Counted from the first letter of the stretch, positions 7,325-22,269 are shown. The stretch is DNA of 64,000 bases from Candidatus Omnitrophota bacterium (GCA_023819145.1 JAMWCW010000006.1:16973-80972), one strand, 5' to 3'. The notes: a model not told the origin generated them from the sequence alone. Made by a program: numbers and translations.

Positions 7325-8335
7325 TTACAAACCGACTCCTTCTATTTGCGTATTACAAAAATGACAGTAAGAATTATCTATGTTGTATTCCAAGACCTGA
7401 AAACCATATCTTCTAATAACCTTTTTCTTACAACCGTAGCAATAGGTATCTTCTCCTTCATCTCCAGGAACATTTCCCGCATAGACATACTTAAGCCCCA
7501 CTTCTAAACCTATCTCTCTTGCCTTGTGTAAAGCACGAAGAGGAGTAGGAGAAACATCATCCATCTTATAATGCGGATAGAATCTGCTAATATGCCAGGG
7601 AGTTTCATTACCTAAACTATAAATAAACTCGGCACAATTCCTTATCTCTTGCTCACTATCATTAAGCCCAGGAATAAGCAAAGTGGTTACCTCTAACCAG
7701 ATATTCATTTTTTTCATTATTTTTAAAGATTCCAAAATCGGCTCAAGTCTTGCTCCGCATATATTTTTATAAAAACCACTGCTGAACGACTTTAGGTCAA
7801 CATTGGCTGCATCTAAATAACCAAGAGCATCACTCAATAACTCCTCTGTCATGTAGCCATTGGTAACAAAATTATTATAAAGACCTCGTTTTTTCGCCAG
7901 CCTCATTATTTCTTTATAATAATCATAAGCGATTGTGGGTTCAGTGTAGGTATAAGAAAGACTCTTGCATCCATACTCTATGGCTGAATCTACTACTACT
8001 TCAGGAGCAACTTCCTCTCCAAAAATTTCTCCCTTGCTTCTCACTATTTGAGAAATCTCATAATTCTGACAGAAATCGCATTTAAAATTGCACCCCACGG
8101 TAGCAACTGAATAAGCAAGGGAACCGGGGAAAAAGTGGAAAAAAGGCTTTTTTTCAATAGGGTCTACATGTTGAGAAATCAATTTCCCGTAAACAAGACT
8201 ATAGAGAATACCTTTTATATTCTCCCTTACTCCGCAAATTCCCTTTTTACCATCAGCAATTAAACAACGATGATTACAGAGAAAACAACGGACATTGTTT
8301 CCTGCAAGCTTCTCATAAAATTCTGCCTCTCTCAT
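7325..8335 (-). CDS. AmmeMemoRadiSam-system radical SAM enzyme
   Basis: 336 aa. It has an N-terminal CxxC-x-C...C cysteine cluster (CFLCNHRC...GICG) followed by the radical SAM motif GCNFKCDFCQN, the pattern characteristic of this family. The partner Memo and AMMECR1 genes are at 20255-22269. Confidence 0.7.
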   Translation of the reverse strand: MREAEFYEKLAGNNVRCFLCNHRCLIADGKKGICGVRENIKGILYSLVYGKLISQHVDPIEKKPFFHFFPGSLAYSVATVGCNFKCDFCQNYEISQIVRSKGEIFGEEVAPEVVVDSAIEYGCKSLSYTYTEPTIAYDYYKEIMRLAKKRGLYNNFVTNGYMTEELLSDALGYLDAANVDLKSFSSGFYKNICGARLEPILESLKIMKKMNIWLEVTTLLIPGLNDSEQEIRNCAEFIYSLGNETPWHISRFYPHYKMDDVSPTPLRALHKAREIGLEVGLKYVYAGNVPGDEGEDTYCYGCKKKVIRRYGFQVLEYNIDNSYCHFCNTQIEGVGL

Positions 8336-8658
8336 ATCTTTCTCAAAGTATCCTCCAAGAAATTCTTAAGCTGTATCTTTGTCTGACTTCCTGCCGTCTG
8401 AGCGATGACTTTCCCTTGGCTAAAAACCAGCATGGTAGGAATAGACATTATTCCGTAGCGCCCCGCAATTTCAGGAAAACTGTCTACATTTATTTTCACA
8501 AAACTAAATCTATCTTTATACTCCTCGGCTAAAGAATCGATTATCGGACTAACTGCCCTGCAAGGTCCACACCACTCTGCCCAGAAATCTACAAATACCG
8601 GAAACTTCGAATCTAAAACATCTTTTTGAAAATCTTTCGCAGTAATTTCTTTAACCAT
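8332..8658 (-). CDS. trxA: Thioredoxin
   Basis: WAEWCGPC active site. I place the start at the internal ATG at 8656-8658, which is preceded by GAGGAGG and does not overlap the trxB stop. The ORF-track start at 8673 is a TTG. Confidence 0.9.
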   Translation of the reverse strand: MVKEITAKDFQKDVLDSKFPVFVDFWAEWCGPCRAVSPIIDSLAEEYKDRFSFVKINVDSFPEIAGRYGIMSIPTMLVFSQGKVIAQTAGSQTKIQLKNFLEDTLRKI

Positions 8659-20258: not shown

Positions 20259-21715
20259 CTATCTGATTCAGAAAAGACCTCAGCAGTAAAAACAAATACC
20301 TTTGTCCCTTTCTCCCAGGCATCGGGTGGAAGTCCCGCTTTTTCCACAAAGCAATTTCTTAAAAACTCTTCTTTCGACCAACCTGTTTCCAAAGCAACCT
20401 GTGGAAGGAAAACTCCACTGCGCAACCCATCAGTAACATAAATTCCGTGCTTGCCTAATTCAAGTTCATCAAGAGATTTTATTTCCTGCGTTGGAGAAAG
20501 AATCGATATTTCAATCTCAATATCCTTTAACTCCTCAGGACGCACCGCAGGAAAACGAGGGTCGTTTAAAGCAGAGGACAAACTTACTCTTTGAATCTGG
20601 GAATATAAAGGGAGCGGTTCAAAATTGCCAATACAACCGCGTAAAGAATCTTTCTTTTTCAGTGTAACAAATGCGCCTCTTTTCTCCAACAGGAAAGGAT
20701 TTTCAACTTTAAATTCCGGTATTTTACCCTCTTTTAAATAAACTTCTAATGTTTCGCGGGCGATTTTTAAGAGTTCCTTTTTTGCCTCATTACTCAAAAA
20801 AGCGCCTTTTTCTCTATAAAAAACTACACTCGCATATCCCACTACCCTCGAGAAATCAAAACTTGTATCTCCCGAATTAGCATACTTAAGAACTTTTATT
20901 CTATCCATACCTAACTCCCTCATTAAAAACATAAGGGTAAGCACTGCACCTCCGCCACAAAGTTCAGCAGTTCCATTTTTTAAAGCCTTTTCTAAATCAA
21001 TGGATCTATTTTGCTCAATCAAACTAAGGGTAAAATTATCCATATCTCTGGCTGTTTGATAATTGTGATAATGGGACAAGTCAGTGGAAGCGAGGATAAG
21101 AAAATTCTTATCCCTTATCGCTGGGGCAATTCTTTGCGCAATTTTCTTACATTCGCCAAGTTCTAGCGTATTAATCAAAATGGGAACAATTTTAAATTCT
21201 TTTAAGACAACCTGTAAGAAAGGTAATTGCACCTCTATAGCATGCTCGTACTTGTGCGCTTGGGTATCGCGAGTTATCTCTAAAGAAATTAGCTTATTTA
21301 TCAATTCTTTATCGATGGGAACTAACCCTAAGGGAGTTAGAAAATCCCCTTTATCAAAAACCTTGGCTTTCTCAATAAAAACGCCATGGCTGGGAGCAAG
21401 AATAACCACGGTATCAAATTTCTTATTTTGAAGAAGCTTATAAGAAAACGCGGCAACTTCTCCTGAATACTCATAACCTGCATGAGGTGCGATTAAACCT
21501 CTAATTTCTCCCTCGATAAGAGGAGTTTGGACTTTATTCAGAAAACTTTCAATCGTTGCTCTTAATTTCTCAGAGTTTGCTGGATAAAATAAACCACTTA
21601 CTACGGGCTGGCGGACTTCTTCTTGAGCAAAAGAGAAAATAGTAAATAGTAGGTAGTATATAGTAGATAGGAAAACCGCGGTTAATCTTGGTCTTTTGTT
21701 TTGCATCGGGGTCAA
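20255..21715 (-). CDS. Fused Memo-family (AmmeMemoRadiSam protein B) and AMMECR1-domain (protein A) protein
   Basis: 486 aa. Residues about 40-300 are Memo-like (IAPHAGYEYSG, ILAPSHG, DLSHYH). Residues about 310-486 are an AMMECR1 domain (RGAFVTLKK..LRGCIG, LPQVA). Confidence 0.75.
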   Translation of the reverse strand: MTPMQNKRPRLTAVFLSTIYYLLFTIFSFAQEEVRQPVVSGLFYPANSEKLRATIESFLNKVQTPLIEGEIRGLIAPHAGYEYSGEVAAFSYKLLQNKKFDTVVILAPSHGVFIEKAKVFDKGDFLTPLGLVPIDKELINKLISLEITRDTQAHKYEHAIEVQLPFLQVVLKEFKIVPILINTLELGECKKIAQRIAPAIRDKNFLILASTDLSHYHNYQTARDMDNFTLSLIEQNRSIDLEKALKNGTAELCGGGAVLTLMFLMRELGMDRIKVLKYANSGDTSFDFSRVVGYASVVFYREKGAFLSNEAKKELLKIARETLEVYLKEGKIPEFKVENPFLLEKRGAFVTLKKKDSLRGCIGNFEPLPLYSQIQRVSLSSALNDPRFPAVRPEELKDIEIEISILSPTQEIKSLDELELGKHGIYVTDGLRSGVFLPQVALETGWSKEEFLRNCFVEKAGLPPDAWEKGTKVFVFTAEVFSESDR

Positions 21716-22269
21716 TCTGTGTTAATCTGTGATTCACTGAAAACTTCTGCAGAAAAGATGTAAATCTGGGTATTTTTATCCCGCCAGGCAAGAGGCGAAA
21801 GACCTGCTTTAAAAGCAGTGTGTTTTAAAAATTCTTCTTTCGTCCATTTATACTCAGTGGCTACTTGCGGCAGAAGAAGCCCGGAATTCAATCCGCTACG
21901 CATTAAAATGCCGTGTTTTCCTACTTCAATTTCCTTTATATCTTCAATTTTCTTTAAGGGGGATAAAACCGAAATTTCTATTTCTATTTCCGATAACTCT
22001 TCTAGCCGTAGAGGATAAAAACGCGGGTCTTTAAAACCCGCCTCAATGGCCATTTCCTGAATAGTTTGATAAAGAGGCTCTTCAGCATAAATTCTTCCAA
22101 TACAGCCACGCAGTTCTCCATTTTTTTTAAGCGTAACAAAAGCACCTCGCTTTTCTAAAAGTCCGGCTTCTTTTGTCTCAAAAGGAGGAATTACACCTGT
22201 TTTAAGATAACTCTCAATAGTTATTCTTGCAAGTTGAAGCAGTTTTCTTTTCTCTTCCTTACACAACAT
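21712..22269 (-). CDS. AMMECR1-domain protein (second copy, about 60% identical to the domain fused upstream)
   Basis: RGAFVTLKKNGELRGCIG...LLPQVATE. I place the start at the internal Met (MLCKEEKRK). The first 20 codons of the ORF-track model read through tRNA-Ala. Confidence 0.75.
   Translation of the reverse strand: MLCKEEKRKLLQLARITIESYLKTGVIPPFETKEAGLLEKRGAFVTLKKNGELRGCIGRIYAEEPLYQTIQEMAIEAGFKDPRFYPLRLEELSEIEIEISVLSPLKKIEDIKEIEVGKHGILMRSGLNSGLLLPQVATEYKWTKEEFLKHTAFKAGLSPLAWRDKNTQIYIFSAEVFSESQINTD

Follow-up and report, generated by a model that had tools for sequence, protein, structure and literature searches.

A stretch of 64,000 nucleotides from a Candidatus Omnitrophota bacterium (GCA_023819145.1, JAMWCW010000006.1:16973-80972), referred to here as the window, carries all three components of the AmmeMemoRadiSam system: the radical S-adenosylmethionine (SAM) enzyme (rSAM; TIGR04337), the Memo-like protein B (TIGR04336) and the AMMECR1-like protein A (TIGR04335). 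Each component scores above its family cutoff and has its catalytic motifs intact. The window differs from the system as otherwise described in having two protein A domains, one free and one fused to protein B, in the signal peptide predicted on the fused protein, and in its rSAM gene, which lies 12 kb away and belongs to a clade that is normally unlinked. The features of the system are as follows, with positions counted from the first nucleotide of the window.

7325..8335, minus strand: AmmeMemoRadiSam radical SAM enzyme, 336 aa, clade U (TIGR04337, PF04055)
20255..21706 (or 21715), minus strand: Memo-AMMECR1 fusion, AmmeMemoRadiSam proteins B and A joined (TIGR04336, TIGR04335)
21626..21706, minus strand: predicted Sec signal peptide of the fusion, MQNKRPRLTAVFLSTIYYLLFTIFSFA followed by QEE, with n-region, h-region and S-F-A motif
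21712..22269, minus strand: stand-alone AMMECR1 (protein A), 185 aa, predicted cytoplasmic (TIGR04335, 195.5 bits, cutoff 99)
22294..22365, minus strand: tRNA-Ala(CGC), called by ARAGORN, 24 nt upstream of the ATG of the stand-alone AMMECR1

The identifications of these genes in a first-pass annotation of the stretch are right, and the main interest of the locus lies in the predicted export signals on the fusions and in the existence of two rSAM clades.

The rSAM gene product matches TIGR04337 over its full length at 340.7 bits (cutoff 220), is also matched by PF04055, and is 100% identical to NCBI entry P0121, named AmmeMemoRadiSam system radical SAM enzyme. Its CX3CX2C motif is C82/C86/C89; this motif, an N-terminal four-Cys motif (C17, C20, C24, C34) and a C-terminal one (C299, C302, C324, C327) are invariant in the 28 homologous sequences aligned. 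The identity that the first-pass annotation thought capable of displacing this one, to be recognised by a better fit to a model of the pyruvate formate-lyase (PFL) activase type, is a glycyl-radical-enzyme activase such as the PFL-activating enzyme (PFL-AE), YjjW or NrdG. Activase models do give weak, partial matches of 48–65 bits (the runners-up are the YjjW activase at 65.3 bits and the PFL activase at 64 bits), the top PDB match is PFL-AE, and thioredoxin genes would be fitting neighbours, as some anaerobic ribonucleotide reductases use thioredoxin. However, the cutoffs of these models are 131–250 bits, the two four-Cys motifs are typical of the AmmeMemoRadiSam enzyme, and no glycyl-radical enzyme gene is seen among the annotated neighbours. 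In the closest solved radical SAM structure, PFL-AE (3C8F), the radical SAM core and the CX3CX2C motif are common to the window rSAM, but the match is partial (44 bits) and the extra four-Cys motifs occur only in the window enzyme. The score comparison (340.7 against at most 65.3 bits) rules out an activase, which is left with practically no probability, and HMM scoring thus clearly upholds the original assignment.

The fusion consists of a Memo domain (aa 35-299, 20816-21619; TIGR04336 at 270.8 bits, cutoff 26; PF01875 at 225.8 bits) followed by an AMMECR1 domain (aa 314-481, 20267-20794; TIGR04335 at 171.9 bits, cutoff 99), and is 100% identical to NCBI entry P0001, named AmmeMemoRadiSam system protein B. 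A start at ATG 21706, giving 483 aa as in the NCBI entry, is likelier than one at TTG 21715, giving 486 aa; the fusion itself and its distance of 12 kb were correctly described at first pass, and only the reported length of 486 aa is likely to be wrong. Counterparts of the MEMO1 metal site are kept in the Memo domain (the His of PHAGY, the His of PSH, the Asp and His of TDLSH and the Cys of LCG), align to those of MEMO1 and do not vary among 35 fusions; the AMMECR1 part has the RGCIG cysteine. The same domains occur in human MEMO1 (3BCZ, 7KQ8) and AMMECR1, whose metal-site residues and LRGCIG cysteine are thus conserved in the window, but in eukaryotes they are individual cytosolic proteins without an rSAM to go with them. 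An AlphaFold model of the fusion (pLDDT 92, pTM 0.70) has two well-folded domains; as it comes without contact information, it says little on a composite active site.

Radical SAM clades and the dispersal of partner genes

In the window the rSAM gene is 12 kb from both the fusion and the stand-alone AMMECR1, so that the three genes are not adjacent, and the first-pass annotation regarded this as a departure from a normally adjacent arrangement. To place it, 80 loci containing the nearest rSAM homologs (49–61% identity) were surveyed in species-representative GTDB genomes of Desulfobacterota, Nitrospirota, Omnitrophota, Anaerolineae, Bathyarchaeia, Methanosarcinales and others; loci are designated here by L numbers. 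Profiles of Memo and of AMMECR1, derived from 120 homologs of the fusion, were run against the six-frame open reading frames (ORFs), the flanks amounting to 1032 kb in total (median 8.0 kb upstream and 6.6 kb downstream, with 44 loci having at least 3 kb on both sides). Neither partner was found in the fetched flanks of 78 of the 80 loci, the two partnered loci being L020, in which a stand-alone Memo lies directly upstream of the rSAM, and L048, in which a stand-alone AMMECR1 lies 2.3 kb upstream. With filters off and E values of up to 10 allowed, nothing further above 8 bits was found for Memo or AMMECR1 in these 80 loci, and this absence of borderline scores indicates that the dispersal is not an artefact of sensitivity. 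An rSAM homolog with 61% identity on a 38-kb metagenome contig likewise has no partner genes beside it.

When 124 rSAM sequences were placed in a neighbour-joining (NJ) tree (distance-based, with no support values), they fell into two groups: the fusion-linked clade L and the unlinked clade U, with the window rSAM in the latter. Genes of clade L nearly always lie right next to a fusion, and those of clade U hardly ever have a partner beside them. All 38 fusion-adjacent rSAMs fall into clade L and are 39–46% identical to the window enzyme; the members of clade U, archaeal ones included, are 44–77% identical to it, with the Bathyarchaeia and Altiarchaeota enzymes at about 60%. The only "linked" members of clade U are those of L020 and L048, in both of which the partners are unfused. 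Both clades pass TIGR04337, at 350–381 bits, and the bipartition agrees with a gap in profile scores (370–465 versus 470–610 bits). Given that 78 of the 80 nearest rSAM loci are unlinked, adjacency does not define clade U, and the premise of normal adjacency fails for this clade. From its placement in these comparisons, the window rSAM is of the type that normally travels alone. The division into fusion-linked and unlinked rSAM clades is a family-wide pattern that was found here and is a new point.

One locus from another Omnitrophota MAG (metagenome-assembled genome), L010 (9998-12396), contains tandem rSAM genes of both clades, with profile scores of 548 and 444 bits, the second copy falling into clade L; the locus stops at a contig edge right after this copy. 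The tandem arrangement implies that the clades co-exist as paralogs in one genome. A separate observation in clade U is a Methyltransf_11 gene (class I SAM methyltransferase) directly upstream of the rSAM on the same strand in 20 of the 80 loci (L009-L085), many of them from Desulfobacterota genomes, as in L015:2843-3655.

The fusion was also presented at first pass as unusual, but it is a common bacterial form. The 120 best protein matches to it are all Memo plus AMMECR1 (42–75% identity, 425–553 aa, two or three of them partial), many homologs are named "protein B/protein A" by JGI, and a metagenome scan returned 80 further fusion loci. An rSAM gene occurs within 3 kb in 26 of the 45 fusion loci having at least 1.5 kb on both sides and in 16 of the 25 having at least 4 kb, in most cases as the gene immediately before the fusion, in the same orientation and no more than 300 bp away; about 40% of the adequately flanked fusion loci are without an adjacent rSAM, as in the window. 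Split and fusion are both normal in the family, and the view of the layout as exceptional is mostly wrong. The operonic bacterial form, in which a clade-L rSAM lies directly upstream of the fusion, is exemplified by L002 (Omnitrophota GCA_023819375.1), L095-L098 and L118-L125; it has the same fusion architecture and export signal at 35–48% identity. The window fusion differs from it in having no adjacent rSAM and in being preceded by a stand-alone AMMECR1, an arrangement shared only with L001.

In a clustering of recurrent neighbours around fusions and clade-U rSAMs, all partners that emerged were lineage-specific and absent from the window. Near 26 of 79 fusion loci (L095-L163; high-GC, example L124:11489-13891) there is a multi-pass membrane protein of about 800 aa with a central spermine/spermidine-synthase domain, and a DUF362 protein with a Tat signal recurs at 10 of these high-GC loci. 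RsmE follows six fusion genes (L097, L099, L113, L123, L132, L161). Mut7-C, a PIN-type RNase with a Zn ribbon, adjoins the bacterial rSAM-fusion block at L002:8506-8955 and L098:16159-16605, and in L002 the block of Mut7-C, rSAM, fusion and DsbD_2 is flanked by tRNA-Met and tRNA-Lys (8406-8477, 12145-12217).

The two AMMECR1 copies and predicted export of the fusion

The stand-alone AMMECR1 is 100% identical to NCBI entry P0241, AmmeMemoRadiSam system protein A, and the RGCIG motif is present in both AMMECR1 copies of the window. Its real start is taken to be the ATG at 22269, as a longer, TTG-initiated ORF would enter the tRNA-Ala; the tRNA, on the same strand and 24 nt before this ATG, is where the first-pass annotation put it. 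The same annotation gave an identity of about 60% to the fused domain, a value that has to be lowered to 54% over 182 aa, although the second gene is certainly present beside the fusion. Its adjacency is genuinely rare, a second AMMECR1 domain being found in none of the 80 fusion loci. The order of tRNA-Ala, AMMECR1, fusion, NYN/YacP-like gene and signal peptidase I is common only to the window and L001, a 73%-identical relative whose tRNA-Ala(CGC) at 9376-9447 has the same position before the stand-alone AMMECR1. The location of a tRNA-Ala next to AMMECR1, like that of the tRNAs around the L002 block, could be coincidence or reflect shared transcription.

As the two copies are neighbours on one strand with 54% identity, the free AMMECR1 might be taken for a copy of the fused domain that arose recently by tandem duplication and is now drifting or becoming redundant. 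This is a most improbable origin. The closest relatives of the free copy are stand-alone proteins of 180–195 aa, with 80% identity in close relatives and 60–68% in other lineages, thus exceeding its identity to the fused neighbour. The nearest relatives of the fused domain are in turn fused domains, and an NJ domain tree largely separates the two types. In L168 (67% identical), a stand-alone AMMECR1 occupies the corresponding syntenic position, again behind the type II secretion/pilus cluster but with no fusion following it, and both window copies retain RGCIG and score well above the family cutoff. Nearest-neighbour identities, domain tree and synteny led to rejection of the duplication, and as judged by these comparisons the free AMMECR1 is of a widespread stand-alone lineage, separate from the fused copy and not a recent duplicate.

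Five stand-alone AMMECR1 loci were examined, four of which (L168-L171) have no Memo or rSAM within 8 kb; in L172 an unfused Memo lies directly upstream. In L168 (8001-11970) and L171 (8001-11247) the stand-alone AMMECR1 is followed by RsmE (PUA_4 and Methyltrans_RNA) and by a protein with UPF0004 and Radical_SAM domains (MiaB/RimO-like), and an RluA-type pseudouridine synthase is also in the L171 neighbourhood. This unfused cytoplasmic form is that of archaea and many anaerobes, and the free AMMECR1 and clade-U rSAM of the window share these lineages and the same dispersal; the difference is that within the 64-kb window Memo occurs only inside the predicted exported fusion. Upstream of the tRNA, at 22460-24999, are pseudopilin-like genes, with an N_methyl motif at 22935-23603 and two genes without a Pfam match, which synteny with L001 and L168 assigns to a type II secretion/type IV pilus cluster.

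What distinguishes the two copies most informatively, and is absent from the first-pass annotation, is the predicted signal peptide. The N-terminus of the fusion, MQNKRPRLTAVFLSTIYYLLFTIFSFA followed by QEEVRQP, has a positively charged n-region (K, R, R), an h-region of about 19 hydrophobic residues, and small residues at -3 and -1 in the S-F-A just before the Memo domain, as is characteristic of Sec signals; in the AlphaFold model, residues 7-25 form a detached helix of lower pLDDT. By hydropathy, signal segments were called in 86% of 120 fusions, compared to 1% of 120 rSAMs and 4% of 113 stand-alone AMMECR1s. Fusion homologs often share a junction of A with Q[ED] or a lipobox, the latter being present in at least 20 of the 120 (for example ...LSCCS and ...VTSCSG), and several of the signal-"negative" fusions are visibly truncated gene calls. 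The four signal-positive stand-alone AMMECR1s are longer proteins in which a separate signal or lipobox is present. An export signal also occurs in 62 of the 69 metagenome fusions that are not truncated, 34 with and 28 without an adjacent rSAM. The stand-alone AMMECR1 of the window has no signal peptide in its sequence, and the unfused Memo genes of L172 and L020 leave no room for one. The fusion is thus predicted to be probably exported to the periplasm, with the free AMMECR1 probably cytoplasmic; predicted export signals on the fusions, and none on the stand-alone twin, are new here. Separate compartments, as predicted, would explain the retention of both AMMECR1 copies. DsbD_2 genes follow three other fusions (L002, L097, L098; from a single-sequence query of low sensitivity), a setting that fits a periplasmic cysteine-dependent enzyme, three loci being few.

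Thioredoxin genes and the surrounding array

The genes next to the rSAM and downstream of the fusion are listed below.

4599-5450, minus strand: rpsB, directly after the ABC exporter gene
5530..7320, minus strand: MsbA-like ABC exporter, 596 aa (TIGR02203 at 524 bits, cutoff 602; ABC_membrane, ABC_tran)
8332..8673, minus strand: thioredoxin TrxA (TIGR01068 at 116.8 bits, above the cutoff of 96.8)
8651..9586, minus strand: thioredoxin-disulfide reductase TrxB (TIGR01292 at 372.6 bits, above the cutoff of 343.45)
19231..19794, minus strand: signal peptidase I-like gene (GSMEPTL and GDNS...SQDSRYWG motifs in the translation)
19770..20258, minus strand: NYN/YacP-like nuclease-domain gene (PF05991 at 63.8 bits; syntenic in L001)

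TIGR02203 (MsbA) is the best NCBIfam match of the exporter, but as its 524 bits are below the cutoff the protein is termed only MsbA-like. The NYN/YacP-like gene overlaps the fusion stop by 4 nt, and the L001 gene syntenic to the signal peptidase I-like gene is annotated as PF10502 Peptidase_S26.

According to the first-pass annotation, the rSAM gene is embedded in an operon with trxB-trxA and the exporter gene, and the thioredoxin linkage hints at a redox-dependent reaction. The gene order holds: the trxA stop overlaps the rSAM start by 4 nt, trxA keeps this position in L004 and L005, and the order SNase-trxB-trxA-rSAM-ABC-rpsB-tsf-pyrH-frr is conserved in these two loci, whose rSAMs are 76–77% identical. 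The operon status is not shown; scans of the two clusters for promoters and terminators yielded no more candidates than shuffled sequence did and were uninformative. Between 22365 and 4599 about 24 genes run in the same direction, and 4-nt overlaps or few-nucleotide gaps occur throughout, also between clearly unrelated genes; they join SNase to trxB and a BNR-repeat protein to a glycosyltransferase, and the array includes PlsY, a CDP-alcohol phosphatidyltransferase, PCMT, a phosphate transporter, PhoU and rpsB. Recurrence of the thioredoxin linkage was sought by neighbourhood statistics, which the first-pass annotation had proposed as a check, and trxA or trxB was beside the rSAM in none of the 80 clade-U loci and none of 40 clade-L loci, the nearest clade-U trxA genes being about 5 kb off on the opposite strand (L011 and L079). 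With the order restricted to two close relatives and absent from these 120 other rSAM loci, a redox-coupled reaction is only weakly supported by it, and functional coupling to thioredoxin was set aside as a candidate. The thioredoxin adjacency is best read, from the comparison of gene orders, as lineage-specific synteny in a compact genome, and without further support the hint is no basis for the design of experiments.

Several observations were made along the same array and its relatives. The SNase-like gene upstream of trxB (9583-10380) has a hydrophobic start, MGFLETMLKLRNILCALVIISLSNFF, and may encode a secreted nuclease. On the plus strand at 15767-16456, a 229-aa ORF with no Pfam match overlaps the minus-strand Sm_multidrug_ex gene at 15796-16293 and is probably a shadow ORF. 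In L004, a close relative, an archease gene and a 1505-aa intein-containing RtcB come after frr and tRNA-Lys (13850-17011), and in L005, from a related Omnitrophota MAG, a 73-aa ORF at 14561-14782 matches MamI (PF26391), a magnetosome protein family.

Interpretation and proposed mechanism

What the window holds is a known system in a lineage-specific variant. The explanation we consider probable is that of an ordinary dispersed AmmeMemoRadiSam set in an Omnitrophota MAG, with AMMECR1 copies split between compartments and an incidental link to thioredoxin; adjacency to thioredoxin and ABC exporter genes is probably not functional coupling. From what is known of the families, the CX3CX2C motif of the rSAM would hold a [4Fe-4S] cluster that cleaves SAM, leading to abstraction of hydrogen from a cytoplasmic substrate, and the cytoplasmic AMMECR1 would act together with it through the RGCIG cysteine. 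The exported fusion would combine the His/His/Asp/His/Cys metal site of Memo with the AMMECR1 cysteine and act on an envelope substrate, the Memo step being presumably metal-dependent and the AMMECR1 step cysteine-dependent. In other bacteria the fusion would usually be served by its own adjacent clade-L rSAM paralog. The substrate of the cytoplasmic branch would most likely be RNA, which is favoured because the free AMMECR1 comes after a tRNA in the window and L001, because it is beside RsmE, MiaB/RimO-like and RluA-type genes in L168 and L171, and because of a published prediction. Comparative work predicts RNA base modification for the AMMECR1-linked system and links archaeal AMMECR1 to Mut7-C/PIN and NFACT genes (PMC4075521; PMC6393860). 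As most fusions have export signals and the unfused proteins have none, RNA modification cannot be the whole story.

Several points weigh against this explanation. The evidence from RNA context comes from few loci, some of which may just share synteny, and the loci sampled for neighbourhoods, being the best 80 of 600 pattern matches, were not drawn from genomes at random. Export was called by a hydropathy heuristic and by eye, not by SignalP. A clade-L rSAM is not present within the 64-kb window, and no stand-alone Memo was found there, the only Memo domain being that of the fusion; both could lie elsewhere in the genome. None of the best PDB matches defines a reaction, the rSAM matching PFL-AE (E = 2e-10) and AMMECR1 matching "hypothetical protein" entries. 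The solved AMMECR1 structures matched are PH0010 (1VAJ), MM0484 (1ZQ7) and ST0229 (1WSC). The 4-nt overlap of trxA and rSAM is kept in three genomes and is compatible with real co-expression, and the DsbD_2 genes beside three fusions keep the theme of thiol redox alive. The literature found on AmmeMemoRadiSam and AMMECR1 comprises only annotation mentions and human-genetics papers, with no functional study among them. A 2019 article by Burroughs et al. (J Biol Chem 294:10211) is said to discuss AmmeMemoRadiSam contexts (cited through PMC7159879 and PMC7694686).

Such redox observations could be taken further, to a pathway across the envelope in which trxB-trxA-rSAM-ABC is a functional operon working with the exported fusion. 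Electrons from thioredoxin would go either into the rSAM reaction or to a cysteine-dependent partner of the rSAM, with the clade-U rSAM and the free AMMECR1 working together; the MsbA-like exporter would flip a radical-modified lipid, isoprenoid or peptide; and the periplasmic fusion, exported as predicted for bacterial fusions in general, would finish the chemistry. In line with this are the overlap of trxA with the rSAM and a 4-nt gap between the rSAM and ABC genes, both kept in three genomes, the predicted export of the fusion, the DsbD_2 neighbours of the three other fusions, DsbD_2 being a membrane conduit for thiol electrons, and the envelope-lipid genes (PlsY, CDP-alcohol phosphatidyltransferase, GT2, PIG-L) between the two clusters. 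However, the 120 surveyed rSAM loci of the two clades have no adjacent trxA or trxB, spacing is just as tight among unrelated genes all along the array, both thioredoxin-system proteins are canonical housekeeping equivalogs, and the ABC gene resembles a housekeeping msbA in being followed by rpsB (and tsf-pyrH-frr in L004 and L005). Such a membrane-spanning pathway is accordingly judged improbable, both as a functional operon and in its fuller form; if true, it would for the first time tie MEMO1/AMMECR1 chemistry to a concrete place in the cell and to a class of substrate.

By analogy, the rSAM might instead be a maturase with AMMECR1 or Memo as its target, altering one residue (the conserved cysteine, for instance) while the protein is still unfolded and not yet exported, which would make the partners substrate and enzyme and not three enzymes of one pathway. 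Anaerobic sulfatase-maturating enzymes act in this way on sulfatases before Sec export, and the nearest characterised rSAM relatives, such as PFL-AE, are protein-activating enzymes. A cytoplasmic clade-L rSAM lies beside a signal-bearing fusion in 58–64% of adequately flanked loci, a pairing that a soluble substrate common to both would not readily explain and that counts in favour of maturation. Eukaryotes keep MEMO1 and AMMECR1 without an rSAM, which is also in its favour. On the other hand, this is pure analogy with no known modification site, the rSAM of the window is of clade U and not linked to the fusion, and the matched AMMECR1 and MEMO1 structures are deposited just as "hypothetical protein" or MEMO1. 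To our knowledge, no modification has been reported in the solved structures of either protein. Maturation is therefore an unlikely, if conceivable, role for the window enzyme, and the dispersed set with compartment-split AMMECR1 copies remains the preferred explanation.

Conservation of MEMO1 and AMMECR1 reaches from archaea to humans, and both have links to disease; the window does not solve their biochemistry. The two rSAM clades suggest two parallel systems, one facing the envelope and one cytoplasmic, which are best kept separate in profiling and reconstitution.

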